DNA of 29,676 bases from positions 1-29,676 of the IMG/VR virus record IMGVR_UViG_2660238507_000002, one strand, 5' to 3'. Positions 2,621 to 20,047 of the stretch are shown here, piece by piece. The stretch's first letter is position 1. Each line of letters starts with the position of its first letter. This DNA comes from a virus (taxonomy: Duplodnaviria; Heunggongvirae; Uroviricota; Caudoviricetes). The notes under the pieces were generated by a model that saw nothing but the letters and a program-made list of their open reading frames with translations, was not told where the DNA came from and made no database searches. Both the position numbers and the translations under genes were made by a program.

Positions 2621-2732
2621 AACTGAAGTTGCCCTGAAAATGAAATTTTTTTGCACAACCGCAGAACTTTTCCGCAGGGCATCAGTCTTAATTAGTGCCA
2701 CTGCTTTTCTTTGATGTCCCCATTTTGTGGAG

Positions 2733-2775
2733 CCCATCAACCCCGCCATTTCGGTTCAAGGTTGATGGGTTTTTT
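2733..2775 (+). terminator. rho-independent terminator downstream of ybjL
   Basis: 10-bp perfect inverted repeat CCCATCAACC / GGTTGATGGG (2733-2742, 2760-2769) followed by TTTTTT. Confidence 0.6.
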
Positions 2776-2855
2776 GTTGCCTGAAATTTATGCCTTTTAA
2801 AATCATGTTATTAGAAGCACTGTTTTTTAACGATGGCGACAAAATGGCGGCAGCG

Positions 2856-3074
2856 TCAAAGAGAGAGCGCCACCTGTCCTGATTTCATTGGATGCGGCTG
2901 AACCGGATTTGACTCTTTTGGCGTTGCAATCGAACGAACAAAAGTTTCATGGGTAACAAAAGTATGGCTGCAGTTAATGTTCTGGCACTGGTTGTAACGC
3001 TCTTTGGTCAATGAAGATACCTGAAAACTGCTGCGAGTATGGGCGGCACTTCCACACAGTGGGCAAATCATCAT
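2856..3074 (-). CDS. ogr: late gene transcriptional activator, Ogr/Delta/B family zinc finger
   Basis: 72-aa ORF with CPLC...C...C zinc-finger spacing and TKERYxQCQNxNC motif typical of P2 Ogr / 186 B; GGGGGAG RBS upstream. Confidence 0.9.
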   Translation of the reverse strand: MMICPLCGSAAHTRSSFQVSSLTKERYNQCQNINCSHTFVTHETFVRSIATPKESNPVQPHPMKSGQVALSL

Positions 3075-3165
3075 TTTTCGAGTTCTCCCCCATTTTTGCT
3101 AAATTCACAATAATGATACCGCATTATTCCATTTTGCAAACTTAAAAGTTCTCCATTGCGAAGAA

Positions 3166-4266
3166 TCATTCCATTTCGAAATCATCAATCCTCACTTCAA
3201 GCTCCAGACTGGTCGTAAAACCGTTATCCGGGCTGACGGTATGTGTCAGAGTCGTAATGGTCCATTCCGCATCATCTATCGGCTGTTTAAAACCACTGAC
3301 CTTCACAGGCATTTCCGTGTAGAGATCTGCCCGCCCTTCTGCCAGTTGTAGCGAAAATGACGCAACGCCGCGTTGCAGGCGTTCCCACTGCATTTTCGCC
3401 GCTCGTTCGGCGTTGCTCCGGTTGACATAAGTGCGATTAAGTACCAGCACGTTTTCATCCGTACCCACCAGGTAATCGCCCTGCTTCGCTTCCGGCTCTT
3501 TCTTCTGCTTCTTAGTCCTGCGCTTACGCTTCACCGTAGTGCTTTCTTTCTTCGCGGGTTCGCGGGTATGCAACCAGCTGGCAATTACGCCCGTATAGGC
3601 TCCGCGATCTGCCAGGGTAAAGCGGTGACTGTCGCCGTCCTTACGTGTGATAGTGATCACCGGCAGTGGTTTACCGCTGGCACTTTTACCCTGTCCCTGC
3701 CGGATGAATAACAGATTGCCATTTTTCACTGACGCAATAGCACCGTACTGGCGCGCCAGCCGCATCAGAAAACTGCCGTCACTCTCATTAGTCTGGTCTA
3801 TATGTTCCACGGGCTTATCCGACAGGTCTTTACCCAGTGCCATCTTCAGCTTGTGACGCGCAGCTATTTCCTTCACCACTTCCCCAACGGTGGTCTTGTG
3901 CCACGACTTTTCACGGCGGGTATTCAGCGTTTCCCGAAAATCAGCACTTCGCGCCCGGATAGTCAGGCGGTCCGGTGCGCCAGTGTGTTCAATCTCGTCC
4001 ACCGTGAATGCCCCTTTCGGGAAAAGCGGCTGCCCCTTCCAGCCCAGCGCCAGCGTAATGACCGCACCACGGCGCGGCAGCGCTATTTTTCCATCGGCGT
4101 CGTCCAGCTCCAGATCAAGCTGGTCCGCTTCAAAGCCCCGGTTATCCGTCAGCGTCAGCCTCATCAGGCGGTTATCCAGCACAGTGGTGATATCCCTGCC
4201 CTCAATACTGATGCTGAATGCGGGAGTTTTGTTGCCTTTGTTAAGCAGTTCAGAGCTGAAATTCAC
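3166..4266 (-). CDS. D: tail protein D (late control gene D)
   Basis: 366-aa ORF immediately upstream of ogr and overlapping U stop/start; position and composition match P2 gpD. Confidence 0.8.
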   Translation of the reverse strand: MNFSSELLNKGNKTPAFSISIEGRDITTVLDNRLMRLTLTDNRGFEADQLDLELDDADGKIALPRRGAVITLALGWKGQPLFPKGAFTVDEIEHTGAPDRLTIRARSADFRETLNTRREKSWHKTTVGEVVKEIAARHKLKMALGKDLSDKPVEHIDQTNESDGSFLMRLARQYGAIASVKNGNLLFIRQGQGKSASGKPLPVITITRKDGDSHRFTLADRGAYTGVIASWLHTREPAKKESTTVKRKRRTKKQKKEPEAKQGDYLVGTDENVLVLNRTYVNRSNAERAAKMQWERLQRGVASFSLQLAEGRADLYTEMPVKVSGFKQPIDDAEWTITTLTHTVSPDNGFTTSLELEVRIDDFEME

Positions 4267-4748
4267 GACAGCAGCCCTCCCACCGTTTTACTGATATCAC
4301 TTAAGGCAGATGTTGCCGTGTCCTGCAGATTATTCAGTTGCGTACTGAGATCACCGAACATATCGGACAGGGATTCATCCACCCGTTTGAGCGACAGGGT
4401 GAACTCAATCCGGCGCGGCATACCGTCGCGGAAAAACTCCGTTTTAGTCAGATTCAGTCCCTCAATCACATACATGCCGTAAATCGTGCCGCTGCCTTCA
4501 ATCAGGGGCCATGCTTTTCCCTGTTCTGCCATCTGCTCCAGAGCCAGCAACGACAGCCTGCCGCCCGTTATCTCCGGCATAAGAACACCAGAAAGCGTCA
4601 GCATATCGTTGTCCGGTCCCAGAAACTGCGTGGATGGACGACGGTTTACCCGGCTGTTTGCCGCATGTCGCCAGCTGCGTTGATACTGCAGTTCCTGATA
4701 CGGAACGGTGCGCAGCATAAACACGTACAATCCCAGCACCATCATCAT
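4263..4748 (-). CDS. U: tail protein U
   Basis: 161-aa ORF between T and D, size and position as P2 gpU; start overlaps T stop. Confidence 0.8.
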   Translation of the reverse strand: MMMVLGLYVFMLRTVPYQELQYQRSWRHAANSRVNRRPSTQFLGPDNDMLTLSGVLMPEITGGRLSLLALEQMAEQGKAWPLIEGSGTIYGMYVIEGLNLTKTEFFRDGMPRRIEFTLSLKRVDESLSDMFGDLSTQLNNLQDTATSALSDISKTVGGLLS

Positions 4749-5308
4749 GCGTCGTATCCCCCCTGATCGCTGTAGTTACTCCTGGCTTTTGCCTTCAGCC
4801 TGCGTTCACGTTCATCAAGCTGGCGTGCCACCTCCCGCGCAATATCCTGCGCACTTTGTCCTGGCTGCGTCTGAATGATGATCTGCGTCGGTGCCTCAAT
4901 CCGGTGAACGGGCGGCACAGTGGCTGCACGACTCACCATCGCTTCGCCGCCTTTCGCGGGAAGTGCCAAAGGATGCAACGGTGGAAGCTCTGCAGGCGCG
5001 GCAGCAACGCCCATCATTCCGGCAACAACGGCAGCCAGTGCAGCTGTATTTCTCCGGCTGGTCACATTTGCCGGGCCGTTAACAATTTCCGGCCCGTTTT
5101 CACCGACGATGCCAAACTGCCCGCGCGGGATATAGCCGCCGCTGTCATACATCCCCGCAAAGCCATATCCCCATGATGGAAAACCACCCGATGGCATCAT
5201 CACTTTAGCTGGCGCTCCACTGGCACTGCTGCGACGCGGGCTTGCTTCATCGGGCAACGCAGCGGGTTTACTTACTGCGCCGTTGTCGTCTTTGCGCCGC
5301 ACGGCATC
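4745..5308 (-). pseudogene. T: tail tape measure protein, C-terminal segment
   Basis: Minus-strand frame encodes tape-measure C-terminus (..SGGYIPRGQFGIVGENGPEIVNGPANVTSRR..IIIQTQPGQSAQDIAREVARQLDERERR..); upstream of about 5310 this frame stops looking like protein. Confidence 0.7.
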
Positions 5309-5980
5309 ACTGACGGGGAATGTCCTGAAAACTGTAGCAGGTGTGCCGGTTGCACTGTTGCGGTCTGGATTATCCGGTTTACGTGCTGTTGCTGTGATGT
5401 TTATGAATCCACTGGCAGCACTACGCGGTGGACTGGCTGCCGCAGGCGCGGTGCTGCGAGTACTGGCATCCGGTCCGCTGGCGATGCTGCGCGTTGCCCT
5501 GTATGCCATATCTGGTCTGTTAGGTGCTCTGCTCAGTCCGATAGGTCTTGTGGTTACTGCACTGGCGGGCGTGGCGCTGGTTGTCTGGAAATACTGGCAA
5601 CCCATCACCGCATTTCTCGCTGGTGTGGTGGAAGGATTCAAAGCGGCGGCAGGTCCCATCAGTGCTGCATTCGAACCACTTAAGCCTGTGTTTCAGTGGA
5701 TTGGCGACAAAGTGCAGGCGTTGTGGGGTTGGTTTACTGATCTGCTGACGCCTGTTAAATCGACCTCTGCCGAACTGCAGAGCGCAGCGGCAATGGGGCG
5801 ACGATTCGGGGAGGCTCTGGCGGAGGGGCTGAATATGGTCATGCATCCGCTGGACTCCCTGAAATCCGGTGTTTCCTGGTTGCTGGATAAACTCGGCATT
5901 GTCAGTAAAGAAGCTGCAAAGGCGAAACTGCCGGAAAGCGTGACGCGTCAGCAACCTGCGACGGTGAATGCAGACGGTAA
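5283..5980 (+). pseudogene. T: tape-measure-like coding segment on the opposite strand (apparent internal inversion of T)
   Basis: Plus-strand frame gives protein-like, tape-measure-like sequence (..LVVTALAGVALVVWKYWQPITAFLAGVVEGFKAAAGPISAAFEPLKPVFQWIGDKVQALWGWFTDLLTPVKSTSAELQSAAAMGRRFGEALAEGL..) while no minus-strand frame here is both open and protein-like; boundaries approximate. Confidence 0.55.
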
Positions 5981-7822
5981 CCAGGACAACGCGCTGCTGG
6001 TTCGTGTTACTACTGCCGTAACGGAAGGTAACGTTTTGATACCCAGCACAGAGAATCCCAGACGGATGACTGCCAGCGGCCCCAGCACTGCAGCCAGCGC
6101 CACCGCTAAGGTGCCGAGGCCTAGGGTAACCGCAGCCACAACAGCCGCTACTTTCATCAGTGTGCCTGTCAGTTCCGGGTTAGCTTCCACCCAGCGGCGC
6201 AACGCCCCCGTGATGCTTTTCACCGTGTACAGAATATCCATCAGCGGCTGGCGCAGCGTTTCGCCCAGGCTGCTGAAGGTATTCTGTGCAGTGGTTTTGA
6301 CCAGCAACCACTGCGCAGAAAGTGAATCCTTGTTAATGTCGGATTCTTTCTGCATGGAGCCGAGCGCATCATTGCCCGCTGTCAGTTTTAGCTGGCGCTG
6401 TAGTTCCGGCAGGTTGTTTGCCAGTTTCGCCGCGTCATCGCCAAACTCTTTACCAAACAACATAGTCATGGCAGACAGACGCTTGTCCTGCGGCAGTGCG
6501 TTCACCTTCTCCAGCACACGCTGGATAGTTCCCATCGCATCCTTCGTCATCTGCTTTTCAATCACTTCAGGATTGAGTTTCAGCAGATTCATCCCTTCAA
6601 AGAAACTCTTGCTCTGCATGGTGGCAATGGACAATTCACGCACCATCGCGTTTGCTGCACTGGCTGCAACCTCCGGCGCAGCGCCCAGTGTCAGAAAGGT
6701 GGAACCCAGCGCCGCCGCTTTACGATAATCCAGACGGTCCGCCACACCGCCCAGACGTTGCATGACATCAATAATGTCTGCCCCTTTCGACATGGCGTTA
6801 TCATCCAGATAGTTCAGCGCATCACCTAGCTGTTCAATATTGCGGGTAGGGATTTTGTAGAGCTGGGCGATTTTCCCCAGACTTTCTGACAGTTCATCCG
6901 CTGGCAGCTCAAAGGCTGTTGCCGCCTTTGCTGCTGTGCTGGCGAAGGCCAGCAGATCACGTTTCTGGTCTTCCCAGCTGTCGTCAGGGTTTGCGACGTT
7001 CATGCGCGCACCACCTTCAACCAGTGCAGCGAAGTCCACAGCACCGTTTTCCATCGGCAACTGTTCGCTGGCAGCCTTGATGGCATCCTGCATTTCATAA
7101 AAACGTGCAGTGCGGTTGCCATTATCGTCACGCAGACCATTGACCTGCTTTGCCACACCTTTCATGGCATCTTCTATGCTGGTATAGCTTTTTACTGCCG
7201 CCATCACTGGCGTCCCCATTGCCAACCCTGCAGCCGTGGTAGTGGCTCCGGCTCCTGCAATACGATCGCGCACCTCCAGCGAACGGGCATAACTGGCACG
7301 CGCCGCATTCATCCTGCGCTGAGCTTCCCCCAGTCGCTTCAGCCGCGCCTCCTGTTTCGACAGTTCCTGGTTATAACGTGATGTTTCACGGGCTAAACGG
7401 GCAGTTGCTCCCGCATCATCTTTCGCAGAAATTCCCGCCCGGTACAGTTCTGCACGCACAAGCGCCGTTTGCTTCTGCAAATATTTTTGTTGTTCTTCCA
7501 GGCGTTGGACTGCCAGCGTTTGCCGACCTAAAGCCACAAGGTGCCGTTGTGATGGTTGTTCCATCGCTTCCAGCTCAGAACTAAGCAAATTTGCCTTCTG
7601 TCTGGCATAGTTCAGCCTGTCGCCTAACTTTTTGTTATCGGCCTGCAGCTTGCGAAATTTTTCCAGGCTGTTACCCGCCTGATTGAGTTGCTTTAATGCG
7701 TCACGGGAGTTTCTGATTGCGCCAGCCAGCTCTTTCGAACTGGCCTGTGCAGCACGGAATGGGCGGGTGAGTTTGTCAACCGCATTAAGAATGACCTGCA
7801 GGCGCAGGTTATTATCACTCAT
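5948..7822 (-). pseudogene. T: tail tape measure protein, N-terminal segment (624 codons, ends at in-frame stop)
   Basis: Long Ala/Leu/Gln/Arg-rich coiled-coil-like ORF starting MSDNNLRLQV, followed by hydrophobic stretch; start overlaps E' stop (ATGAGTGA). Confidence 0.75.
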
Positions 7823-7994
7823 CGTTGGCCCCGCTTCTCTGAATCGCTTTATACCGCCATTCCAGCACTTCGGTCAGCGGCATAACGTCAGTAACGGATG
7901 GCGGCCAGTGAAAAATGGTGGCGATATCTGCCACCAGATCGTCAACCGTCAGGCTGTCGGTAAACCGGCAAGCACCGACTTCTTCAACAAAAAA
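7815..7994 (-). CDS. E': E' extension produced by -1 programmed frameshift (E+E')
   Basis: TTTTTTG slippery heptamer on minus strand at 7988-7994 near the E 3' end; -1 frame stays open about 58 codons and terminates at TGA overlapping the T start codon. Confidence 0.6.
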   Translation of the reverse strand, partial: FFVEEVGACRFTDSLTVDDLVADIATIFHWPPSVTDVMPLTEVLEWRYKAIQRSGANDE

Positions 7995-8251
7995 GTGACA
8001 ACCTCAACCGACATGGCAGTGAGATCTGCCGGGTCCATCTCTGCAATTTCCTGTGCAGTCAGTGCCGGACTGGAAATGCGGGGGATCACGGTCATCATCG
8101 CGTTCACATCCATATCCATAATGGCCTGCAGGCGTGTACCGCGCAGCGCACCGGACTGCGGTTTACGCAACACAATTTCGGTAATTTCTGTTTTACCGCG
8201 CATGATGGGGGTATCCAGTTGAATGGTCTTTTCAGTCTGCTTATCGTTCAT
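7949..8251 (-). CDS. E: tail assembly chaperone E
   Basis: ORF directly upstream of T as in P2; ends with slippery heptamer. Confidence 0.75.
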   Translation of the reverse strand: MNDKQTEKTIQLDTPIMRGKTEITEIVLRKPQSGALRGTRLQAIMDMDVNAMMTVIPRISSPALTAQEIAEMDPADLTAMSVEVVTFLLKKSVLAGLPTA

Positions 8252-8305
8252 TTTGTTGTCCTGTAAATTGGGTTCTGGCGCGGTATCCCGCGCCGTTCAG
8301 ATAGA

Positions 8306-8821
8306 TCAGAGGCCGAGGGCGTTGCGGTGCGCTTCCATCAGGTCCACACCGTCCACAATTTCCACCATGTTGATAAGGTCCACTTCATAGAGCACCTCAC
8401 CATTGATGGTCAGCTTCGCGTAGCTGTTGGTACTGGTCACTTTGGTGGTGTTGCTTTCGCCCGTCTTCCACTCGCCGGAATCCACTTCTTTGTGACGTCC
8501 ACGCACCACAAGCTCCACGGCCTGCACTTCTCCGGTATCGTCACGCTGGATAGAGCCGGTAAAGCGCAACTGGATGCCATCCACCGTGGCTTTGCCCATC
8601 TGCTTAAACAGCAGCAGTTCAGTACCACCAATGGAAAATTCTGTGTCCAGAGCACTGTCATCCAGTCCCAGATCCACATCCACTGCACCCGGCATTCCGC
8701 CGCCGCGATACTTCTCATATTTGCGGGTGAATTTCGGCAGCGTCAGCGACTCAACGATCCCCTGCCAGTTGTTCCCGTCGTTAAACAGGTTCAGGTGTTT
8801 TAATTTGCGTGGTAAAGCCAT
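8306..8821 (-). CDS. FII: tail tube protein FII
   Basis: 171-aa ORF, size/position and sequence as P2 gpFII. Confidence 0.85.
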   Translation of the reverse strand: MALPRKLKHLNLFNDGNNWQGIVESLTLPKFTRKYEKYRGGGMPGAVDVDLGLDDSALDTEFSIGGTELLLFKQMGKATVDGIQLRFTGSIQRDDTGEVQAVELVVRGRHKEVDSGEWKTGESNTTKVTSTNSYAKLTINGEVLYEVDLINMVEIVDGVDLMEAHRNALGL

Positions 8822-8830
8822 GTTGTCCCC

Positions 8831-9427
8831 TTACGCGCTGACCTGGCTGGAGAAATTCACCAGGTACTGATCGGTGATGCGCTGACGCAGCATCAGGTTT
8901 TCAAGTGGCGGCACTGGTGTGTAGTCGTAGTCGATGGTGAGTTTTCCAGCTTTCAGAGTGTCTTTGTCGTTCACCGACTCATCCAGCCAGCAATCGCCAC
9001 CAATGAGATAGCCCTGACTGATCAGGCTGCGCATTTTGGCGCGGATACCTTCGATAATGTCGCGGGCCAGCGACGGATTCAGCGGTTTATCGACCGCCCA
9101 CATTGGCGCTTCTGCCATCGTGTCCATCAGCACCTGCGCCGTGCGGGTGTAGTTTTCGAAGGCAAAGAGTGGGTCATCACTCAGGCAGCGGGAACCCCAG
9201 AAGCGGAAACCGTCTTTACGCACAAGCGTGGTGACGTCGTTCTGGTTCAGCAGACCTGCATCAGTTGCCGGGTCCTGCAGATCCCAGAACACATCAGCAG
9301 AAATTCCGGTGACACCGTTCACGCCCACGTTGGACAGGCTTTTGTGCCACCCTGTCTGCTCATCAATTTTGGCACGCAGACCAAGCGCACGGGCGGTGGC
9401 ATATGCCGTTGCGTCGGCATTCAGCAC
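8831..9427 (-). pseudogene. FI: tail sheath protein FI, C-terminal half only
   Basis: 198-codon frame where a ~396-aa sheath gene is expected; ends ..[18 protein letters not shown] like P2 FI C-terminus. Confidence 0.7.
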
Positions 9428-9669
9428 CGTGTCCCAGCCAGTACAGCCTTCACTGCCTTCGGTGTTGCGGCCAGTATTTCGGATTCACTGTTGGTCGCAC
9501 TGCTTAACTGAGTAAAACCTTTTGCGGTCAGCGAGGCGTCCGGGTGACGTCGTGACTGTTCGTGCTCTGATATTTTGTCATCCACATACTTGCGAGTTGC
9601 CAGTACTACAGCAGGGTCGATTTTCAGGGTGATATTGTCCGTGCTGCTGGTAATCAACACCATACGCAC
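9421..9669 (-). pseudogene. H: tail fibre protein H, short internal fragment
   Basis: 82-codon frame containing [49 protein letters not shown], the conserved N-proximal tail-fibre repeat of P2 H and relatives. Confidence 0.7.
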
Positions 9670-9917
9670 GGTCTGGGTAACGCAAAGGCGGTTTCCAGAT
9701 TGCCGCCCAGACTCAGCAGCACCACCTGCTCACCTTCCGATGGTCGCCACCATGTCCGGGCATTCCCGGCACGCAGGGTCAGCCAGCTGATCCAGTTGGT
9801 TTCTAAGTCGCCTGTTTTCACCCGGCAAAGCCAGTTTTCCCGGTCCACTTCGGTGACTACCCCAGTGCGGATCAGGTTGGTGATAAGGCGCATGATTTCG
9901 GTTAATTGTGCGTTCAT
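9654..9917 (-). pseudogene. V: baseplate spike protein V, N-terminal fragment
   Basis: 87-codon frame matching gpV N-terminus (..IRTGVVTEVD..CRVKTGDLETNWISWLTLRAGNARTWWRPSEGEQV..), then frame change and stop. Confidence 0.7.
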
Positions 9918-9963
9918 AGGGAAAGGTTGCCATCAGGGGAAGAAAGGCGGCAGTGCTGCAACT

Positions 9964-9981
9964 TGTATCAGTGCTGATACA
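9964..9981. promoter_or_regulatory. Ogr/B activator binding site (TGT-N12-ACA) of the V-operon late promoter
   Basis: TGTATCAGTGCTGATACA, a perfect-dyad TGT-N12-ACA element between S and V. Confidence 0.6.
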
Positions 9982-9985
9982 AAAA

Positions 9986-10432
9986 TCACCCCGCCAACCA
10001 TTGCAGAATCATGTCGCGGGTCATTGCCTCAACATCATCATTTACGCCCAGAAGGCGACGCTCTGCGTAACGGACCTCCGGTCCTTTGCGGCTGACGCGA
10101 TCACGCAGGCCATAATGGTGGACGCGGGCAATGCGCTGCACCTTACCTTCAAACTGCACGCTGGCAGAGTCCTCGCTGGCGGCGGTTTTCAGGTATTTTG
10201 TGGTGCGAAGTTTTGTAAACATCTGCCGTTTGATACGGCCTTTTTTACTGCGTGCTGTTACTCGCCTCGGTTCATAGCTGCTGCCATCAGGATTGCGTTG
10301 CATCCTGATGTTCTGCTGCTGTGTCCGGCGCAGTTCCTGCGCCAGCTGGCGCATCATGCGGCTTCTGGCGGCTGGTTCCAGATTCGCCAGCAAGGCACTC
10401 AGCCAGTCGTCCACCTTCTGCAGTTCAGCCAC
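9986..10432 (-). CDS. S: tail completion protein S
   Basis: 148-aa ORF following R, start overlaps R stop; matches P2 gpS size and position. Confidence 0.8.
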   Translation of the reverse strand: MAELQKVDDWLSALLANLEPAARSRMMRQLAQELRRTQQQNIRMQRNPDGSSYEPRRVTARSKKGRIKRQMFTKLRTTKYLKTAASEDSASVQFEGKVQRIARVHHYGLRDRVSRKGPEVRYAERRLLGVNDDVEAMTRDMILQWLAG

Positions 10433-10877
10433 GTTTCACCGTCCACATTTCTTCAGGTGCATCAGGTTCCGCTATAGCTTCAACGCTCGACACACTACCG
10501 TCAGTGCTGACCAGCACACGCTCCGTCAGTTGCAGGTTCAGGCTGATATCACAGACATCGTTGCGCAGAATATCCACCTCAAAGGTGAATAGTTTTTCCC
10601 GTAACGCCGGGTTATTGATGGCATCGGGCTGGTTATCCCTCAGCCACAGCAAAACCGGGGCCATCAGCAGATTCTGGTCGCCGCTGAAATCCTCAATCAC
10701 CGCGTTCAGGGTGTAACGGTACTCCCACGACATGGAGTTGGCCCCCGTGGCAACCAGCGAACCGTTATCCACAAACAGATGCAGTTTGTCCGGGTTATTG
10801 CGGACATAAGGCACCGCTTTATTGAGGGCGTGGCGCAGGGATTGTGGTTTGTTCACTGTTTCGCTCCTGACACGCAA
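10425..10877 (-). CDS. R: tail completion protein R
   Basis: 150-aa ORF after the lysis cassette, as in P2. Confidence 0.8.
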   Translation of the reverse strand: MRVRSETVNKPQSLRHALNKAVPYVRNNPDKLHLFVDNGSLVATGANSMSWEYRYTLNAVIEDFSGDQNLLMAPVLLWLRDNQPDAINNPALREKLFTFEVDILRNDVCDISLNLQLTERVLVSTDGSVSSVEAIAEPDAPEEMWTVKRG

Positions 10878-11109
10878 TAATCATGTCCACTTTGTCTGCA
10901 CAGACCGCCCAGGCGGCCTCCGTTTCATCCAGCAACGCATTCAGATCACCGTTAGTGCGCGGTGCTGCCTGCTCCAGCCGACACGGCGTCACTCGCGGAC
11001 AACCACTGACGGTAAGCTGCACCTCCGGTGAGTGCCGGACGTTCCCGCAGCCGGATAATGTCAGCAGGCAAAGGAGTATCAGCCCAGTGGCGTAAATCCT
11101 CGTTCTCAC
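10819..11109 (-). CDS. lysC: Rz1-like outer-membrane lipoprotein spanin (LysC)
   Basis: 96-aa ORF in alternate frame overlapping lysB 3' end; signal peptide with lipobox LSGC; Pro-rich. Confidence 0.7.
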   Translation of the reverse strand: MRTRIYATGLILLCLLTLSGCGNVRHSPEVQLTVSGCPRVTPCRLEQAAPRTNGDLNALLDETEAAWAVCADKVDMIIACQERNSEQTTIPAPRPQ

Positions 11110-11380
11110 GTTTCAGTTCCTCGATCCGGCGTTGTCGTTGTCTCAGCTGTGCGCTGGTCTGTTCTGCTTCGGCATAGAGCCGCGCCTGCTCCCGGTTATT
11201 GGTTTCAGTCAGAATGGACAGGCTGATAAGCTGGCTGTTGCTCTTTGCCAGTGCCTGGCTTTTGCTCTGCAGCTCGTTTGCCTGCGTGCTGATGGTCTGG
11301 CTGGCATCAGCCAGCCGCCACGTCTGCCAGCCCAGCGCCGCCAGTAATAACGCCAGCACAACCAGCAGCAACCGGTTCAT
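10952..11380 (-). CDS. lysB: Rz-like inner-membrane spanin (LysB)
   Basis: 142-aa ORF with N-terminal TM helix then coiled-coil (Gln/Arg/Glu-rich). Confidence 0.8.
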   Translation of the reverse strand: MNRLLLVVLALLLAALGWQTWRLADASQTISTQANELQSKSQALAKSNSQLISLSILTETNNREQARLYAEAEQTSAQLRQRQRRIEELKRENEDLRHWADTPLPADIIRLRERPALTGGAAYRQWLSASDAVSAGAGSTAH

Positions 11381-11754
11381 GCTGCTACCTGTTGCGCCAT
11401 CTGATTACGGGTGATCCAGAAGGCAATAACGGTCAGCAGATAAAAGACCAGGGTAATAGCCCACCCCGTCCATGCGAGACTTACAACAATCAGCAATCGC
11501 ATCACCCAACAGATAAATACATTTTCTTTTCGGGTAATTGTCTTCAGCAAAGATGCCCTTAACTCCTGCCAGAGCGGGCCATTCTGAATTAACGCAGCCA
11601 GTGCTACCGGAATTACCGCCCATGTCAGCAAACAGGCTACCCAAACGCCGGACGCTGCCAGTACCGGAAAGATCCCCTGCGGATACACCATTGCTGCGAT
11701 TAACAGCGCCATCCATAACATCAGAAACAGTCCGCTGATTAATTTCTTTTTCAT
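11377..11754 (-). CDS. lysA: lysis regulatory membrane protein LysA
   Basis: Multi-TM small ORF between endolysin and lysB; ATG at 11754 (MKKKLISG...) chosen over upstream alternative start at 11826. Confidence 0.65.
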   Translation of the reverse strand: MKKKLISGLFLMLWMALLIAAMVYPQGIFPVLAASGVWVACLLTWAVIPVALAALIQNGPLWQELRASLLKTITRKENVFICWVMRLLIVVSLAWTGWAITLVFYLLTVIAFWITRNQMAQQVAA

Positions 11755-11755
11755 T

Positions 11756-12268
11756 TCAGTTTGCTCCCTGTAAACACCAGGCCATCTCCCGCGCACGGCG
11801 GTTATCCAGCCCCTGATTAAACACACCTTTTACATAAACCCAGCGCGGCAACTGTCGGCACGCATCCGCCCAGCGCCGCTGATTGAGCAATTTCACCAGC
11901 GTGGAACTACAGGCATTGCCCGTCCCCACGTTGAAGGCAAACGACACCGTAGCGTCATACACCTTCTGTGGTGGCTGTTGCTTCACACACCTTTCCAGTG
12001 CCCGCTCCACACGCAGCACGTTGGAGATCAGCCCTTCTGCTGCCTGTCGTTCCGTGATTGTTTTGCCGGGAATGACGCCCGATGTATTACCAATGCCGTC
12101 GGTCCAGACACCCGCGCTGCACTGATACGGCTGCAGACGACAGCCTTCGTAATCGGCAATCAGTTTCAGCCCCTCCACGGAGGTGTGAAGCTGCTGAAAA
12201 CCCGGCAGCGTGGCAGCAATAGCCAGCACGGCCCCGACAAGGCAGCGTTTAACGATTGATGGATTCAT
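11756..12268 (-). CDS. K: endolysin (lysozyme family)
   Basis: 170-aa ORF with N-terminal signal-anchor-like segment and lysozyme-like core (..LKLIADYEGCRLQPYQCSAGVWTDGIGNT..). Confidence 0.85.
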   Translation of the reverse strand: MNPSIVKRCLVGAVLAIAATLPGFQQLHTSVEGLKLIADYEGCRLQPYQCSAGVWTDGIGNTSGVIPGKTITERQAAEGLISNVLRVERALERCVKQQPPQKVYDATVSFAFNVGTGNACSSTLVKLLNQRRWADACRQLPRWVYVKGVFNQGLDNRRAREMAWCLQGAN

Positions 12269-12464
12269 AGTCCTCCCGCGAGATCTGCCCGTCGCGCAGA
12301 AGCTGGTAGGCTTTGTGTTTGTAGTACCAGTTGATAGCCAGCATCAGCACACCAATCATCAGGCCGCCCAGCGTTGAGGCATCCTTGATGGACAAATCGC
12401 CCAGCCAGGCCAGCACGACGGCGATGCAATACGTGATAAAGGCGCTGATTCGCTCAAGCGTCAT
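12249..12464 (-). CDS. putative holin
   Basis: 71-aa ORF with two hydrophobic helices and charged C-terminus immediately upstream of endolysin. Confidence 0.6.
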   Translation of the reverse strand: MTLERISAFITYCIAVVLAWLGDLSIKDASTLGGLMIGVLMLAINWYYKHKAYQLLRDGQISREDYESINR

Positions 12465-12467
12465 AAT

Positions 12468-12671
12468 TCAGTCCCATAGCTGGACGGTCTGCACGGTGGT
12501 GGTGGTCGGTATGTCCGGCAGCTCCACCTGCAGCCCGTGAGGTAAAAAGGGGCCGTATTCGGCAAGCCCCGGATTTGCCTTCAGTACCTGCTCCGTGACA
12601 CCCTGCGTGCGCCCGTAATGACGCCAGCAAAGCGCGTCCACCGTGTCATACTGATACGCACGCACTTTCAT
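12468..12671 (-). CDS. X: tail protein X
   Basis: 67-aa ORF with LysM-like sequence (..YGRTQGVTEQVLKANPGLAEYGPFLPHGLQVELPD..) as P2 gpX. Confidence 0.85.
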   Translation of the reverse strand: MKVRAYQYDTVDALCWRHYGRTQGVTEQVLKANPGLAEYGPFLPHGLQVELPDIPTTTTVQTVQLWD

Positions 12672-13198
12672 CAGATAAGCTCCACTGTGCAGTGCGGCGC
12701 ATCCTGCACCCGGCTGATGGCCCAGCGGGCGTCACGCCACAAATCACCGCTGGCTTCCGCCAGTTCTTCGCCTCGCTTCACACCGGATGCCGTGGCGTCA
12801 TAGTCCTGGTATCGTTCGTTGAGCATGGCGCGTGCCCAGCAGTAAACCGCGTTGAAATAGTGCTGAATGCGCTCACTTTTCCCGTCCAGCTGTTCCGCCG
12901 GAACCTCTGCCAGCGAGGCATACCCCAGCATCTGCTGGCGTCTGCGAAACTCATACAGCTCTGCGTTGACCTCCGAAATTGCCGACAGGGCAACCTGCTT
13001 TAAACGCGGCTGCGTCACCGTGCCGTCAGTGCGCATGACACTGCGAAACTCCGACAGGTCCACATCAGGCCAGAACGGCGTATTTCTGATGATTTCCGCC
13101 TGTTCCGGTGCCTGTTCTGGCGCAACAAACTTCATGCTGCTTTCTCCTGAAATAGAGGGCGGTGGACGGGGTTTTGATGAGGCTGTGCCTTTCGCCAC
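12671..13198 (-). CDS. L: head completion/stabilisation protein L
   Basis: ORF between M and X as in P2; true start may be the internal ATG (MKFVAPEQ...). Confidence 0.7.
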   Translation of the reverse strand: MAKGTASSKPRPPPSISGESSMKFVAPEQAPEQAEIIRNTPFWPDVDLSEFRSVMRTDGTVTQPRLKQVALSAISEVNAELYEFRRRQQMLGYASLAEVPAEQLDGKSERIQHYFNAVYCWARAMLNERYQDYDATASGVKRGEELAEASGDLWRDARWAISRVQDAPHCTVELI

Positions 13199-13230
13199 CC
13201 CGTGCCGCCCGTGCGCGGGGGCACGTTCTG

Positions 13231-13881
13231 TCAGCGGCTGTCATTGCGCAGTCTGCGCTCCAGCTGCTGTTTGTCTTTTTTCACGCCACAGCGGGGATCG
13301 AGCTGTAACGCATGGTTGAGATGATTAAGGGCGGACGCCGGATTGCTTTCACTCAGGACAACGCCAATCGCTTTATGCAGACGCGCCCGTGACTGGTCCG
13401 GCATATCCAGACCGTCTGTCAGCTCCAGCGTCTGCAGCAACAGATCAGCATCAAAGCCGGTGGCGGCAAGCATTGCGCTCTGCGCGGCGTCTGCCATTTC
13501 CTCTGCCAGCACGGTCTGCACGTTGCGGTTACCCAGCGGCATCACCCAGCCATGACGCAGGGCATGACGCCCGATCTCCAGCGCTCCGGCATAATCTCCG
13601 GCATCAATGCGCCACAGCATCACGTACATCAGCACGTCATCCTGTTGAGCGCCTCCGGCAGCCAGGACACCCTCTGCCCAGGCGGCGTACTTCGGCAGCA
13701 GCTCCACCTTGATTTCCGCTTTTTTGACCGTGGACTGAACGCCCTTGAGACGGCGGCGGTCTTCCGCCAGTTGCAGCAGCATCAGGTCATAGCCCGATGC
13801 GTGGCGAACACTGCCGCCCTCGCGGGCGGCCTGTTCAGCCTGAACGCGCAGGCGATGCTGCCGTGCGGGACTCAGGCTCAT
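13231..13881 (-). CDS. M: terminase endonuclease (small) subunit M
   Basis: 216-aa ORF, sequence resembles P2 gpM (..RHASGYDLMLLQLAEDRRRLKG..VLMYVMLWRIDAGDYAGALEIGRHAL..). Confidence 0.8.
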   Translation of the reverse strand: MSLSPARQHRLRVQAEQAAREGGSVRHASGYDLMLLQLAEDRRRLKGVQSTVKKAEIKVELLPKYAAWAEGVLAAGGAQQDDVLMYVMLWRIDAGDYAGALEIGRHALRHGWVMPLGNRNVQTVLAEEMADAAQSAMLAATGFDADLLLQTLELTDGLDMPDQSRARLHKAIGVVLSESNPASALNHLNHALQLDPRCGVKKDKQQLERRLRNDSR

Positions 13882-13884
13882 GGA

Positions 13885-14244
13885 TTACGCTCCTGTTTCG
13901 GCTGCGGCGGCGCTGAAATCACCAATCTGGATGTTTTCCACCAGTGCGGCGCAGCGGTAGTCCTCAACCACATAGGCTTCGTTAACGGATTCAAAGTTTT
14001 CAATCCGGTCACGTTTCGGGTTGTCGATAACTGAACGGCGGCGGGTGTCTTCCTGCCAGTAGATGGACAGGTTATCCAGACGGGTGATCAGCAGCGCATT
14101 CGGCGGGAAGATCTGGTCTTCCAGCGTCTGCTGCACAGACGGCTCCACGGTGAACTTGCTGGACAGTTCTTCAACTGCCACACCGTTCAGACGCGCCAGC
14201 TGCTGCAGGTAAGCGTTAAAAGCAAAGCGGGTATTCTTCTTCAT
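13885..14244 (-). pseudogene. N: major capsid protein N with large in-frame internal deletion
   Basis: Only 119 codons between O and M where a ~357-aa gene is expected; retains gpN-like N-terminus (TRFAFNAYL..KFTVEPSVQQTL) joined to gpN-like C-terminus (LITRLDNLSIYW..NPKRDRIENFESVNEAYVVEDY..GDFS). Confidence 0.75.
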
Positions 14245-14260
14245 CAGGTTTTGTGCTCCA

Positions 14261-15094
14261 TCAGCAATTGGTCAGAGTGTCAGCGGGGGCGTTACCGCCT
14301 GTTGCACGCTGGCGGTAGTCCTGGCGGCTGTCTTCATGGCTCAGCTTGTCCACCAGTTCGTCAAAGGCGGTCAGCTGTGCCTGCAGGGCTGTCTCCAGCT
14401 CAGACAAGCGTTCTTCCTGTTCAGACAGGGATTTTTCGGTGCGCGCACTCAGGTTTTGCTGCTCAGTGGCGACCAGCTCCACGGCCTTATGCACATCAGA
14501 GAACCGGGCATCGTCTGACTGCTCTTTTTTGGTGAACAGCGCCGTGACGCGGGCAAACAGGGACGGTTTGTCGTCCTGGACTTCCTCCAGTTCGATCACC
14601 GTTTCTTCTGCAGCGGTAAAGAGATTGGCAGGATTCTGCTTGCGGTTTGCCAGCGGGTTATGGGCTGCACTGGCGCTGAATGTCAGCATTTCAGTGCCCA
14701 GACTGGCAGGGTCATCAGTGGCAGCCAGGCCGACCAGGTAGGCTTTGCCCGTATCAGCGAACTTCGGGCTGACTTCCATAGAGGTGAATAATTTCTGGCC
14801 TTTTTTCACCAGTTCCACCAGGGACTCCGTTGGCTCAACGTCGGCATACAGCGCCATCTTGCCTGCCAGCGGACCTTCCTTGATTTCTTCAGCAAACAGC
14901 GCCGTCACCTTGCCGTAGCGGTTAAAGGTGCTGTCCGGCAGATAAGACTTGATGTGCTCAAGGTTAATCAGCGCGGTATACACCGCCGGGTTGTAGCTGG
15001 CTGCCATCTGTTCCAGCCATTCACGCTGGATTTCGCGTCCGTCGGTGGTGGCACCTTCCACCCCGATGCGAAAACGCTTTGCTTTCACTGTCAT
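14261..15094 (-). CDS. O: capsid scaffold protein O
   Basis: 277-aa acidic coiled-coil-rich ORF, first gene of leftward late operon. Confidence 0.8.
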   Translation of the reverse strand: MTVKAKRFRIGVEGATTDGREIQREWLEQMAASYNPAVYTALINLEHIKSYLPDSTFNRYGKVTALFAEEIKEGPLAGKMALYADVEPTESLVELVKKGQKLFTSMEVSPKFADTGKAYLVGLAATDDPASLGTEMLTFSASAAHNPLANRKQNPANLFTAAEETVIELEEVQDDKPSLFARVTALFTKKEQSDDARFSDVHKAVELVATEQQNLSARTEKSLSEQEERLSELETALQAQLTAFDELVDKLSHEDSRQDYRQRATGGNAPADTLTNC

Positions 15095-15172
15095 GAGCCG
15101 TGCTCCGTTAGAAAAAACTTACTGGAGCCTTATGGTTGCGGTGATAGGGGCAGTGAAACAATGCGCGGTATT

Positions 15173-15190
15173 TGTACCGACAATCACACA
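15173..15190. promoter_or_regulatory. Ogr/B activator binding site (TGT-N12-ACA) in divergent P/O late-promoter region
   Basis: TGTACCGACAATCACACA in the 142-bp intergenic region between O and P. Confidence 0.5.
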
Positions 15191-15236
15191 AACCGCAGGC
15201 GGGGAAAGCCTTCATTCAAGGCTGTAGGTTTGTGCC

Positions 15237-17003
15237 ATGAACACCACACTGACACCCGCAGATCTCGATCCCCGTCGGCAGGCCATGCTGCTGTACTTTC
15301 AGGGATACCGCGTCGCCCGCATTGCTGAAATGCTGGGCGAGAAAGTTGCAACCGTTCACAGCTGGAAAAAACGCGACAAGTGGGGTGACTATGGGCCGCT
15401 GGATCAGATGCAGCTCACCACCGCCGCACGCTACTGCCAGCTCATTATGAAGGAGCACAAAGAAGGGAAAGATTTCAAAGAGATTGACCTGCTGGCGCGC
15501 CAGTCGGAACGCCACGCGCGGATCGGCAAGTTTAACAATGGCGGCAACGAAGCCGACTTAAACCCTAACGTCGCCAACCGTAACAAAGGCCCGCGCCGTC
15601 AGCCGGAAAAGAATGTTTTCACCGATGAACAGATTGAGAAGCTGGAAGAAATCTTTCATTCCTCCATGTTCAACTACCAGCGCCACTGGTGGGAAGCCGG
15701 AAAAACCAACCGCATCCGCAACCTGCTGAAGTCACGCCAGATCGGCGCGACCTTCTATTTTGCCCGTGAAGCCCTGATTGACGCCCTGCTGACCGGACGT
15801 AACCAGATTTTCCTTTCCGCCAGTAAGGCACAGGCCCACGTCTTTAAGCAGTACATCATCGACTTCGCCAAAGAAGTGGATGTGGAACTGAAAGGCGATC
15901 CGATGGTGCTTCCTAACGGGGCCACGCTTTACTTCCTCGGCACCAATGCCCGCACGGCCCAGAGTTATCACGGCAACCTGTATCTGGATGAATATTTCTG
16001 GATACCGAAATTTCAGGAGCTACGCAAAGTGGCTTCCGGTATGGCTATTCACAAGAAATGGCGGCAGACCTATTTTTCCACACCATCCAGCCTGACCCAC
16101 AGTGCTTATCCGTTCTGGTCCGGTGCGCTGTTCAACCGCGGACGCAACAAAGCCGACAAGGTGGACATCGACCTGTCCCACAACAATCTGGCCCCCGGCC
16201 TGCTGTGCGCTGACGGGCAATACCGCCAGATAGTCACCGTCGAAGATGCGGTGCGCGGCGGCTGTAACCTGTTCGACCTTGACCAGTTGCGCATGGAATA
16301 CAGCCCGGACGAATACCAGAACCTGCTGATGTGCGAGTTTGTGGACGATCTCGCGTCCGTGTTCCCGCTCAGCGAACTACAGGCGTGCATGGTGGACAGC
16401 TGGGAAGTCTGGACCGACTTTCATGCACTGGCGCTGCGCCCGTTTGGCTGGCGCGAAGTGTGGATCGGTTATGACCCGGCAAAAGGTACGCAGAACGGCG
16501 ACAGCGCCGGATGCGTAGTGGTGGCACCGCCAGCCGTGCCGGGCGGTAAGTTCCGCATTCTTGAGCGTCACCAGTGGCGCGGGATGGACTTCCGCGCCCA
16601 GGCTGACGCCATCAAAAAACTGACTGAACAGTACAACGTGACATACATCGGTATCGACTCAACCGGCGTCGGTCACGGGGTTTACGAGAACGTGAAAGCG
16701 TTTTTTCCTGCCGTCCGGGAGTTTGTCTACAACCCCAACGTTAAAAATGCCCTGGTACTCAAGGCCTACGACATTATCAGTCACCGCCGTCTGGAGTTTG
16801 ACGCCGGACACACCGACATAGCGCAGTCATTTATGGCAATCCGTCGCGCCACCACCGCCAGCGGCAACCGCCCGACCTATGAAGCCAGCCGCAGCGAAGA
16901 AGCCAGCCATGCCGATCTGGCGTGGGCAACAATGCACGCACTGTTTAACGAACCGCTGCAGGGCGAGTCCGCCAATACCAGCAATATTGTGGAGATTTTT
17001 TGA
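15237..17003 (+). CDS. P: terminase ATPase (large) subunit P
   Basis: 588-aa ORF; translation resembles P2 gpP. Confidence 0.85.
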   Translation: MNTTLTPADLDPRRQAMLLYFQGYRVARIAEMLGEKVATVHSWKKRDKWGDYGPLDQMQLTTAARYCQLIMKEHKEGKDFKEIDLLARQSERHARIGKFNNGGNEADLNPNVANRNKGPRRQPEKNVFTDEQIEKLEEIFHSSMFNYQRHWWEAGKTNRIRNLLKSRQIGATFYFAREALIDALLTGRNQIFLSASKAQAHVFKQYIIDFAKEVDVELKGDPMVLPNGATLYFLGTNARTAQSYHGNLYLDEYFWIPKFQELRKVASGMAIHKKWRQTYFSTPSSLTHSAYPFWSGALFNRGRNKADKVDIDLSHNNLAPGLLCADGQYRQIVTVEDAVRGGCNLFDLDQLRMEYSPDEYQNLLMCEFVDDLASVFPLSELQACMVDSWEVWTDFHALALRPFGWREVWIGYDPAKGTQNGDSAGCVVVAPPAVPGGKFRILERHQWRGMDFRAQADAIKKLTEQYNVTYIGIDSTGVGHGVYENVKAFFPAVREFVYNPNVKNALVLKAYDIISHRRLEFDAGHTDIAQSFMAIRRATTASGNRPTYEASRSEEASHADLAWATMHALFNEPLQGESANTSNIVEIF

Positions 17004-18028
17004 TGGGAAAGAGTAAGAAGAACCGCGCTGTGTCGACGAACCAGATTCAGCATAAAAGCCAGACTTCAGCCGAAGCATTCAGCTTTGGCGATCCCGTTCC
17101 TGTTCTGGACCGCCGCGAACTGCTGGACTATGTGGAATGCGTACAGACAGATCGCTGGTATGAGCCGCCAGTGAGTTTTGACGGACTGGCGCGAACCTTC
17201 CGCGCTGCCGTGCATCACAGTTCACCAATTGCGGTGAAATGCAACATTCTGACCAGTACCTACATCCCTCACCCGCTTCTCAGCCAGCAGGCTTTTTCAC
17301 GTTTTGTGCAGGACTATCTGGTATTTGGTAACGCATACCTGGAGAAACGCACGAACCGGTTCGGTGAAGTTATCGCCCTTGAGCCTGCTCTGGCAAAATA
17401 CACCCGACGTGGGTTAGACCTGGATACCTACTGGTTTGTGCAATACGGCATGACAACCCAGCCGTATCAGTTCACGAAAGGCAGCATCTTTCATCTGATG
17501 GAACCCGATATCAACCAGGAGATCTACGGCCTGCCCGGTTATCTTTCTGCCATTCCGTCAGCCCTGCTCAACGAGTCCGCCACGCTGTTCCGACGCAAAT
17601 ATTATATTAATGGCAGCCATGCAGGATTCATAATGTACATGACCGATGCCGCTCAGAACCAGGAGGATGTGAACAACCTCCGCAACGCGATGAAAAGCGC
17701 CAAAGGGCCAGGCAACTTCCGCAACCTGTTTATGTACTCGCCTAACGGCAAAAAAGACGGGCTTCAGATCATCCCATTGTCAGAAGTCGCGGCGAAAGAT
17801 GAGTTTTTGAATATCAAAAATGTTAGTCGCGATGACATGATGGCGGCACACCGCGTGCCGCCGCAGATGATGGGGATTATGCCTAATAATGTTGGGGGAT
17901 TTGGGGATGTGGAGAAGGCAAGCAAAGTGTTTGTGCGGAATGAGTTAATGCCATTGCAAAAGAATTTTGAATCACTGAATAACTGGGCTGGAAAAGAAAT
18001 TATTTCATTTAATGACTACTGTTTTTAA
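17000..18028 (+). CDS. Q: portal (capsid vertex) protein Q
   Basis: 342-aa ORF overlapping P stop, as P2 gpQ. Confidence 0.85.
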   Translation: MMGKSKKNRAVSTNQIQHKSQTSAEAFSFGDPVPVLDRRELLDYVECVQTDRWYEPPVSFDGLARTFRAAVHHSSPIAVKCNILTSTYIPHPLLSQQAFSRFVQDYLVFGNAYLEKRTNRFGEVIALEPALAKYTRRGLDLDTYWFVQYGMTTQPYQFTKGSIFHLMEPDINQEIYGLPGYLSAIPSALLNESATLFRRKYYINGSHAGFIMYMTDAAQNQEDVNNLRNAMKSAKGPGNFRNLFMYSPNGKKDGLQIIPLSEVAAKDEFLNIKNVSRDDMMAAHRVPPQMMGIMPNNVGGFGDVEKASKVFVRNELMPLQKNFESLNNWAGKEIISFNDYCF

Positions 18029-18033
18029 GAAAA

Positions 18034-18057
18034 TGCGCATGGAAATTTTCATGCGCA
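18034..18057. terminator. palindromic hairpin between convergent Q and reverse transcriptase genes
   Basis: TGCGCATGGAAA / TTTTCATGCGCA near-perfect palindrome; on the minus strand it is followed by ATTTTCTT. Confidence 0.5.
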
Positions 18058-18063
18058 CACACG

Positions 18064-18993
18064 TTATTCTGATACTACAGGTTGATATCTCTGGATTTCA
18101 TCAATCAGCTCTGATGAATATTTCGCACAAAGCCTATTAATAAATAATGGCTCAACACTTTTGCAATACGATAAATATCCTTGAAGAAATAGCCTTTTCT
18201 TCTCATCAAGAGCCTCCCATTTAAAAATAAGCGATTTAACCATCCTTTTTTTATCTCTCCCTAAGGATACTCCACCATCTGTTGTCAAAGTCACACCCGT
18301 AACCATCATTTTATTTTTCTTTGACATATGCAGTGTCTTTTTTCTATTAATCCATAGTTTTGATGGGTATTTCAAATTTTTTAAATTCGAGCGTAAAAAA
18401 GGTGGTATTTGCTTCAATACATTTTCTTCGTTTGTTGAGAAGTACATATCATCAGCATAGCGTGTATATGTTATACCTTTTGAAAGACAAAATTCATTCA
18501 ATATATGATCTAATTCATAGCATATAGCATTGCTTACCACAGGGGAACTAACAGCACCCATAGTCAGTCTCCCGTTAAAGCATACTATTTTTACCAGCAA
18601 ATCAGTATCATCCTTTGACCAATCATCACTGAAGAAATGCTTGTTGTCGTTTATAAATCTCTCAACATCACTTTTCTTAATTGAATCAAAAAAACCTTCA
18701 AAGTCCATCTTAAGCATAAAACGTTTAGCTTTGTGAATGCTTGCATGTTTGAACACTGATGAACCCTGCTGATATGCTACAGCATTTGGATGAATCGGCA
18801 ATTTCGACAGAACATTATCATGAAGTAATCTCTGCAAAACTTTTAATTCTTTAGAGGGCTGATAGACGATTCTTGTCCCACCGCCTTTTTTAGGTACAGA
18901 AAATTTACCATAATGCGAGTTAGCATCATTTGCAACTTTTAATATAAAATCAGCTTCTAACAGTAAAACTTTAGCTAGATACTCAATTAACAT
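18064..18993 (-). CDS. retron-type reverse transcriptase
   Basis: 309-aa ORF with RT motifs: N-terminal FSVPKKGGGTRIVYQP, motif A KMDFEGFFDSI, motif B GAVSSPVVSNAICY, motif C YTRYADDMYF, and retron-typical VTGV downstream; AT-rich; ATG 1 nt after upstream gene stop. Confidence 0.85.
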   Translation of the reverse strand: MLIEYLAKVLLLEADFILKVANDANSHYGKFSVPKKGGGTRIVYQPSKELKVLQRLLHDNVLSKLPIHPNAVAYQQGSSVFKHASIHKAKRFMLKMDFEGFFDSIKKSDVERFINDNKHFFSDDWSKDDTDLLVKIVCFNGRLTMGAVSSPVVSNAICYELDHILNEFCLSKGITYTRYADDMYFSTNEENVLKQIPPFLRSNLKNLKYPSKLWINRKKTLHMSKKNKMMVTGVTLTTDGGVSLGRDKKRMVKSLIFKWEALDEKKRLFLQGYLSYCKSVEPLFINRLCAKYSSELIDEIQRYQPVVSE

Positions 18994-18994
18994 A

Positions 18995-20047
18995 TCACAT
19001 GATCCTTTCTAATTCTGCTTTGAATTTAGATATCATTATTAAATCGGATAATGATCTAGCTCTACTTCGTTGAATACTTTCAACTAAATCTTTCATCTTT
19101 TCATGATTAAAAAATTTAATATAATCGACACATGAATAATGGGTCACGCCCTCAAATCGACTTTCCTTAAAAATCCCAAGGGCAACTCCAATAGAAACAA
19201 CAAATGAAATATTTTTATTAATTTTATAATTTATCAACCTACCTGTGATATTAATAATCTCAGGAATTGTTATTGGACCTAAAGAAGATATAACAACGAG
19301 CACAAAAAATAAAAAAATTTTTGGTGAATATTTGTAATCACCTATTGAATTTGTATTAGTTATGTTTGATTGAACTTTCCTATTTAGCCTTTCATTTATT
19401 TTAGGCATACACGTTAAAATTGTCTCAAATTCAGTATAGATTGTAGGGCCAAATTTGGATTCACTATCAACCCATTTTACGGGCCCTGTATTGATAAATG
19501 ACTTATGACTTTCAAACTTTTTATCTAATATAGGAAGAAGTTTTTTACGTAAAACAGGACTTAATGAAAATGCGCCCAATTCAGCTACAGTGCCATAACT
19601 CTCTACGAGAATAATTACCACATCAGAAAAATCCGCAAGCCATTCTTCAAGTGATAGCGCATTCACATTACTATGAGTTCCTAAATTGCTAATTACTTCC
19701 CATGCTAATTCTGCTCGAAAAGTAACAAATTCTTTATGATGCTTAGCAATATATTTTTCCAGCATCCCTCTATTTGAACAATAAGTCTCATCTCCTCCAC
19801 AAATAAATAATACTTTTGGCAGGATATAATTAAAAGAATTCAAGTTACTTGGAAAAAAACTTGAAATAAAATTTTCTTTTGCTCGTAAATATCTAGGATG
19901 TTTAAACCACATAACAATTAATGCCCATACAAGAGTTCCCGAGACACAAGTTAGCCTGGTGTCTATAAATGACACAAGGCTAACTTGTGTCGAGATACCA
20001 AGCAATCCATACGAGTTGGCTAAACACCAACCACTAGAAAGTAACAT
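18995..20047 (-). CDS. retron effector candidate: NDT/SLOG-like domain followed by two predicted transmembrane helices
   Basis: ORF translationally coupled to RT; contains ..VVIILVESYGTVAELGAF.. (resembles nucleoside deoxyribosyltransferase-like Glu motif) and hydrophobic stretches KIFLFFVLVVISSLGPITIPEII and ISFVVSIGVALGIF. Start uncertain: first 46 codons overlap a strong hairpin and look non-protein-like, so true start may be ATG at 19912. Confidence 0.6.
   Translation of the reverse strand: MLLSSGWCLANSYGLLGISTQVSLVSFIDTRLTCVSGTLVWALIVMWFKHPRYLRAKENFISSFFPSNLNSFNYILPKVLFICGGDETYCSNRGMLEKYIAKHHKEFVTFRAELAWEVISNLGTHSNVNALSLEEWLADFSDVVIILVESYGTVAELGAFSLSPVLRKKLLPILDKKFESHKSFINTGPVKWVDSESKFGPTIYTEFETILTCMPKINERLNRKVQSNITNTNSIGDYKYSPKIFLFFVLVVISSLGPITIPEIINITGRLINYKINKNISFVVSIGVALGIFKESRFEGVTHYSCVDYIKFFNHEKMKDLVESIQRSRARSLSDLIMISKFKAELERIM

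Follow-up and report, generated by a model that had tools for sequence, protein, structure and literature searches.

A probable recent deletion scar among the tail genes of a defective 186/Wadgaonvirus-type prophage in Escherichia coli ST410

Introduction

How does a P2-like prophage come to carry pieces of three tail genes, packed into 1087 bp, at the place where its relatives have a complete series of baseplate, fibre and sheath genes? The question is raised by positions 8831-9917 of a stretch of 29,676 nucleotides (IMG/VR record IMGVR_UViG_2660238507_000002; hereafter the window), which an initial annotation, made from the sequence alone, read as a tail region reduced to fused gene fragments. 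The V, W, J, I, H, G and FI genes are all essential tail genes in P2 genetics. Here we define what was lost from it, with which joints, from which parent and how recently, and we weigh the events that could have produced it.

Results

The host of the prophage is E. coli ST410 isolate 50822286, a carbapenemase-producing clinical isolate (PMC6559143 for the identity of the isolate). Over the 20,360 bases compared, the window matches NCBI draft contig LNIK01000019.1 (GCA_001463645.1) base for base, and over 19,917 bases it is 100% identical to Logan contig SRR2724128_14; LNIK01 is a draft short-read assembly and the Logan assembly probably derives from the same read set. The prophage is integrated at the ybjL/rybB-rcdA site, with grxA-ybjM-ybjL of E. 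coli as flanking host genes, and the window covers it from ogr to the int stop codon, the whole element being about 27 kb long. The RybB sRNA lies at 2700-2778 (Rfam, 105 bits), about 80 bp from the ogr end, and the prophage directly adjoins rybB.

The gene order is that of P2-like phages (Peduoviridae), ogr-D-U-T-E/E'-FII-FI ... V-S-R-lysis-X-L-M-N-O followed by a divergent P-Q, as established by collinear blastn matches to phage 500465-1 and to the A37 and MS14386 prophages together with the list of Pfam genes. The early region also has the markers of such a prophage, namely tyrosine integrase domains and a Phage_GPA initiator A of 804 aa, and CI, CII, Fil and a methylase are annotated in identical DNA. 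The prophage is of the 186/Wadgaonvirus type and not P2 proper, and therefore it never carried Z/fun; both Z/fun and orf30 are present in P2 and absent here. P2 proved a poor reference, matching the window at only about 66-71% DNA identity except for a short stretch of 89.5% in H. Escherichia phage 500465-1 (Wadgaonvirus) was better, matching at 93-97%, and essentially exact parents are found in two intact, near-identical prophages, those of E. coli A37 (L006) and MS14386 (L008; NZ_LR130552.1, 3088764-3122805), the latter confirmed to lie at the same chromosomal site. These two have the same gene order and sequence as the prophage studied here, but with full FI, G, H, I, J, W, V, T and N genes. 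All the retained pieces from window position 5205 to 14111 are 100% identical to the MS14386 prophage, and a single substitution (at 17797) separates the two over the roughly 20 kb from 2696 to 22626. We also observed a mosaic boundary inside the replication gene A: on its left side the sequence is MS14386-like, with one SNP in 20 kb, and the early region beyond it (22627-29676) is about 3% divergent from MS14386, yet 100% identical to the N196, E189 and 4314 prophages. This late region and this early region occur together in no other complete genome.

The interval 8831-9917 consists of three abutting minus-strand fragments in three different reading frames, FI', H' and V', and is followed by an intact tube gene:

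8306..8821, minus strand: FII, tail-tube gene, intact and directly downstream of the FI remnant (within the block 5978-9443 that is 100% identical to MS14386; Pfam Phage_tube)
8831..9443, minus strand: FI', 3' remnant of the tail-sheath gene, codons 188-390 plus stop (100% identical to L006 5818-6430 and L008 12740-13352)
8831-9427, minus strand: FI' ORF, 198 aa, starting at an internal GTG
9442..9679, minus strand: H', 238-bp internal piece of the tail-fibre gene, codons 121-199 (238/238 identical to H of A37 and MS14386)
9421-9669, minus strand: H' ORF, 82 aa, in the native H frame, stopping after 6 codons of out-of-frame FI sequence
9675..9917, minus strand: V', first 81 codons of the baseplate spike/assembly gene V (100% identical to L008 18701-18943)
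9654-9917, minus strand: V' ORF, 87 aa, 81 V codons plus 6 out-of-frame codons from the H piece

The identities of the three fragments, first assigned as a V N-terminus, an internal piece of H and an FI C-terminus, are confirmed by their ORFs and by homology searches. In Pfam the 198-aa ORF matched the end of Phage_sheath_1 (profile positions 98-167 of 168; the subtilisin-like domain) and the full length of Phage_sheath_1C, the 82-aa ORF the last 27 positions of Phage_tail_fib (tail-collar fibre N-terminal domain) and a Phage_fiber_2 repeat, and the 87-aa ORF Phage_base_V, the OB domain of baseplate protein V. PHROGs agreed, naming them tail sheath, tail fibre and baseplate assembly protein. 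According to tblastn with the proteins of an intact relative, the window holds residues 188-390 of the 390 of FI (100%), 121-199 of the 695 of H (100%) and 1-81 of the 192 of V (98.8%), and the P2 proteins gave equivalent spans (FI 194-395, H 123-199, V 5-83). The sheath piece is thus the C-terminal half that had been described. The sizes given to the other two pieces needed correction: the 87 codons taken as the N-terminus of V do begin at its start but contain 81 V codons and six that are out of frame, and the 82-codon piece is indeed H but comprises H codons 124-199 and six codons of FI, the native piece having 79 codons (238 bp). Searches with W, J, I and G gave zero tblastn matches anywhere in the window at E<=1e-3, from ogr to the int stop, which upholds the absence of these genes; intact copies of the missing genes were not found elsewhere in the window.

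In the intact MS14386 prophage the locus has the order FI-G-H-I-J-W-V and measures 6.2 kb, and its counterpart here is 1087 bp. The reduction to about 1.1 kb had been recognised correctly, from a parental region set at about 7 kb with Z/fun, which has to be revised to 6.2 kb in a phage type without Z/fun. Alignment to a complete relative, proposed at the outset as the way to find the joints, defined two deletion junctions against A37 and MS14386, with 100% identity across the retained pieces; short repeats at the junctions, also proposed for inspection, are present at both. The two deletions removed 2572 and 2545 bp, together 5.1 kb, and three-way alignments of the window with both parental breakpoints placed the joints as follows:

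9442..9443, no strand: junction A (FI/H), 2-bp microhomology TA; 2572 bp gone, comprising FI codons 1-187, the PF promoter, G and H codons 200-695
9675..9679, no strand: junction B (H/V), 5-bp microhomology GGGTA; 2545 bp gone, comprising H codons 1-120, I, J, W and V codons 82-192

Both deletion lengths leave a remainder of 1 on division by 3, so each fragment stands one base out of register with its neighbour. The out-of-frame joining that had been noted is therefore real, with three ORFs in three frames, each one base off. Translation from V or from H stops six codons beyond the junction. A functional V-H-FI fusion protein is ruled out by the one-base frame shift at each junction and the stop within six codons, and V', H' and FI' are pseudogenes that code for nothing functional.

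Two further lesions lie in the late region, and both were located by comparison with the intact prophages:

5205..5980, no strand: balanced 776-bp inversion inside the tape-measure gene T (by blastn 100% identical to L006 and L008 when reversed)
13885..14244, minus strand: N', major capsid gene with a 699-bp in-frame deletion (alignment to the intact prophages)

In junction alignments the ends of the T inversion show a 3-bp inverted microhomology, TTA/TAA, with no base lost or gained. The inversion places residues 615-873 of T on the opposite strand (tblastn) and breaks the gene into ORFs at 5948-7822 (minus), 5283-6728 (plus) and 4745-5659 (minus). The deletion in N took codons 46-278 (233 codons), leaving 119, with the microhomology GA at its junction (14110-14111). 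Two separate matches to Pfam Phage_cap_P2 were obtained for N', of which the better covers the C-terminal end of the profile (positions 268-327 of 327). The 119-aa N' ORF has been annotated as a protein by NCBI. Given this deletion, heads would be lost as well as tails.

Microhomology with one copy kept is thus found at all three deletion junctions (TA, GGGTA and GA), the pattern of illegitimate deletion. At least 5 bp, as at junction B, are expected by chance with a probability of about 0.005, and the joint chance of at least 2, 5 and 2 bp at junctions A, B and N is about 1e-4 under a random-join model, a figure with which empirical resampling of the parental sequence agreed. No IS or other foreign DNA was found at junctions A and B, which are direct parent-to-parent joins in the alignment, and comparison of the eight parental breakpoints revealed no shared restriction or recombinase site, nor any other motif, beyond the 2-5 bp just described. 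In addition, the MS14386 prophage has no invertase gene. A site-specific or IS-mediated rearrangement was rejected, there being no IS, recombinase site or long repeat at the junctions.

No structural lesion was seen in the rest of the prophage on comparison with an intact one. This holds for ogr, D, U, E/E', FII, S, R, the lysis cassette, X, L, M and O and likewise for P and Q (terminase, portal), the retron, A, a Dam-like methylase, the CI/CII region and int. The following of these features bear on late expression and on the cargo:

2856-3074: ogr, encoding an Ogr/Delta zinc-finger activator
9964..9981, minus strand: Ogr-type activator site TGT-N12-ACA of the late promoter PV, intact, 47-64 nt upstream of the V ATG
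18064..20047, minus strand: type II-A (St85-family) retron in the P2 portal-side hotspot (PADLOC; RefSeq names in MS14386)

The distance of the PV site from V is comparable to that annotated in P2 (42-69 nt upstream). A second Ogr-type site is found between O and P, at 15173, and in the intact MS14386 prophage a PF-like TGT-N12-ACA site lies upstream of FI (L008 13989-14006), within the interval lost in deletion A. Judging from these motifs, the PV site would be the sole remaining late promoter able to drive V'-H'-FI'-FII-E-T'. With PF lost and PV kept, FII, E/E' and the broken T would be transcribed on induction only by read-through from PV across the pseudogene fragments.

The retron comprises a reverse transcriptase (18064-18993; PADLOC RT_II-A, 4e-105) and an NDT-like effector (18995-20047; PADLOC NDT_II-A, 1e-53), and the MS14386 prophage carries the same St85-family cargo. 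A search with Rfam at the gathering threshold detected RybB alone and gave no match to the msr/msd RNA, which is expected just upstream of the retron, at about 20050-20260 on the minus strand. P2-like phages are known to carry defence systems, retrons among them, in their portal-side hotspot (PMC9122126). ORFs of 280 aa and 71 aa adjoin the retron (20266-21323); they matched PHROGs of unknown function alone (phrog_3630 and phrog_9843) and neither Pfam nor PADLOC, and may be uncharacterised hotspot cargo.

A search of 5,426 complete E. coli genomes, of which some 1,000 have the intact sequences, found none of the junctions of the window, not even singly, and JGI metagenome contigs and IMG/VR likewise contained none. 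By exact look-up in a gene index, the chimeric junction ORFs are on record solely in two assemblies of isolate 50822286. The four lesions are recent and private to this isolate, because one substitution in about 20 kb stands against four structural lesions, and because the junctions are absent from the collections searched.

Degraded prophages in which internal deletions have fused fragments of tail and head genes are present at the same site in strains OHT76-1, FORC_082, JS316 and N196. Among these and further strains the fusions join T/terminase, T/tube, sheath/V, X/O, sheath/H, V/lysozyme, terminase/portal, T/sheath, T/V and D/sheath, and four readable junction overlaps (OHT76-1, FORC_082 and JS316) measure 2-12 bp. 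The genes ogr, D and U are kept in three of the four strains examined, N196 having lost them, and all four keep the early genes and hotspot cargo. Their breakpoints and cargo differ from those described here, which makes them independent events; no junction of the window is shared by the other remnants at the site. The nearest in form is OHT76-1, where the sheath is fused directly to V without the H island that is retained in the window, and which has no near-identical intact relative, its best other matches being at 96-97%. In N196 the deletion extends out of the prophage into chromosomal artJ. The defence-type cargo, which varies among the remnants at the site (L003, L004, L005 and L012), includes SEFIR, PcfJ, DprA with a PRTase, a retron with PtuAB-like genes, TIR and a P-loop NTPase with an HsdR-N protein.

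Discussion

All these data point, with very little doubt on our part, to 8831-9917 being a recent deletion scar made by illegitimate recombination in a defective 186/Wadgaonvirus-type prophage at the ybjL/rybB-rcdA site, in which an ancestral 6.2-kb FI-G-H-I-J-W-V block would have been cut to 1087 bp at the microhomologies TA and GGGTA. No observation speaks against this reading. The prophage lacks W, J, I and G, its V, H, FI and N are truncated and its T is split; it is thus defective, and its gene content together with P2 genetics implies that on its own it should be unable to make tails or heads. The scar is ordinary prophage decay and involves no new kind of element or mechanism; the sole mildly unusual aspect is that four fresh lesions cluster in a prophage that has hardly diverged by point mutation.

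A source in a draft short-read assembly, with a second assembly that probably uses the same reads, raises the question of whether the collapsed region could be a mis-join or a collapsed repeat. We regard such an artefact as highly improbable, since two different assemblers agree at every base over 20 kb, a span that takes in all four junctions, and the retained pieces are unique sequence, not repeats. Moreover, the junctions share just 2-5 bp with the parents, and joins of this kind in a k-mer graph would need reads that span them. A remodelling by selection also deserves consideration, in which the structural genes were shed as costly or defence-triggering and a helper-dependent or domesticated module for retron defence, lysis and replication was kept. 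The retron, A, CI, int, methylase and lysis genes are indeed lesion-free, the late region and retron are one substitution from the intact relative, the other remnants at the site also keep SEFIR, PcfJ, DprA/PRTase, retron or TIR genes, and P2 hotspots are known to house defence systems (PMC9122126). However, useless fragments and a scrambled T were left instead of a clean excision, a single lesion would have been enough to stop virion production, the gene inventory holds no satellite-type genes, and with one substitution in 20 kb the keeping of the other genes requires no selection. Adaptive remodelling therefore seems unlikely to us, although less so than an assembly error.

The harder question is whether the lesions of this deletion scar arose together or one by one. 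One point change stands against four rearrangements in 14.7 kb of parental DNA, which is far above what ordinary genome-wide rates would lead one to expect, as a general judgement and not a computed one, and which suggests either a single episode or a locally very high rearrangement rate. Junctions A and B are best read as one event because only 238 bp lie between them: most likely a complex 5.35-kb deletion in which an internal segment of 238 bp would have been retained or re-copied, possibly by serial template switching in replication or by rejoining of broken ends. Under independent deletions such a spacing would have roughly a 3% chance, which is an estimate and not a computed test. For all four lesions, the T inversion, the two deletions flanking H and the N deletion, an origin in one short episode is a tentative proposal that we hold at somewhat less than even odds; as candidate mechanisms, the late region could have undergone multiple breaks or multiple template switches in the course of an infection, an abortive induction or an attack by nucleases, with subsequent joining at microhomologies. 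We give the same weight to the opposing account, that junctions A and B were independent sequential deletions in neutral decay and that the T inversion and the N deletion were two more independent events. Multi-lesion remnants with differing junctions are common at the locus in other strains, and stepwise decay clearly occurs. Against that account, one substitution in 20 kb from the intact prophage leaves little time for four independent rearrangements in 14.7 kb, two independent 2.5-kb deletions are unlikely to spare just a 238-bp island, and no single one of the four junctions occurs alone in the 5,426 complete genomes or the gene index. The lack of sampled close relatives weakens this last argument: with no other complete genome pairing these late and early regions, the missing intermediates may merely reflect relatives that were not sampled.

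Gene loss from a P2-like late region is also known in R-type tailocins, which keep a complete tail and baseplate and lose the head. A tailocin is ruled out here, because the sheath is truncated, baseplate and fibre genes are deleted and the head genes O, M, L, P and Q are present. Nor does the prophage resemble a P4-like or other phage satellite, its inventory, as judged from the Pfam gene list, being only P2-type genes plus the retron. In E. coli K-12 the P2 remnant is ogrK and a fragment of gene D, under 1 kb in all; it likewise represents a P2-family prophage shrunk by deletion, but as an end state, whereas the prophage of isolate 50822286 is about 27 kb long, mostly lesion-free and evolutionarily fresh.

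In practical terms, the annotation of this ST410 prophage should be that of a defective one, with V, H, FI, T and N as pseudogenes and W, J, I and G missing, and predictors that rely on gene counts may still call it intact or questionable. For the family, it provides a clean and datable case of very early prophage decay, with microhomology-bounded junctions and a retained defence retron, and the many independently scarred prophages at ybjL/rybB-rcdA form a natural series on how, and how fast, P2-like prophages are inactivated. If the four lesions did arise in a single episode, this would be a bacterial analogue of chromoanasynthesis or chromothripsis-like events in a natural clinical isolate, and it would suggest that P2-like prophages at this site are inactivated in bursts and not by slow decay.
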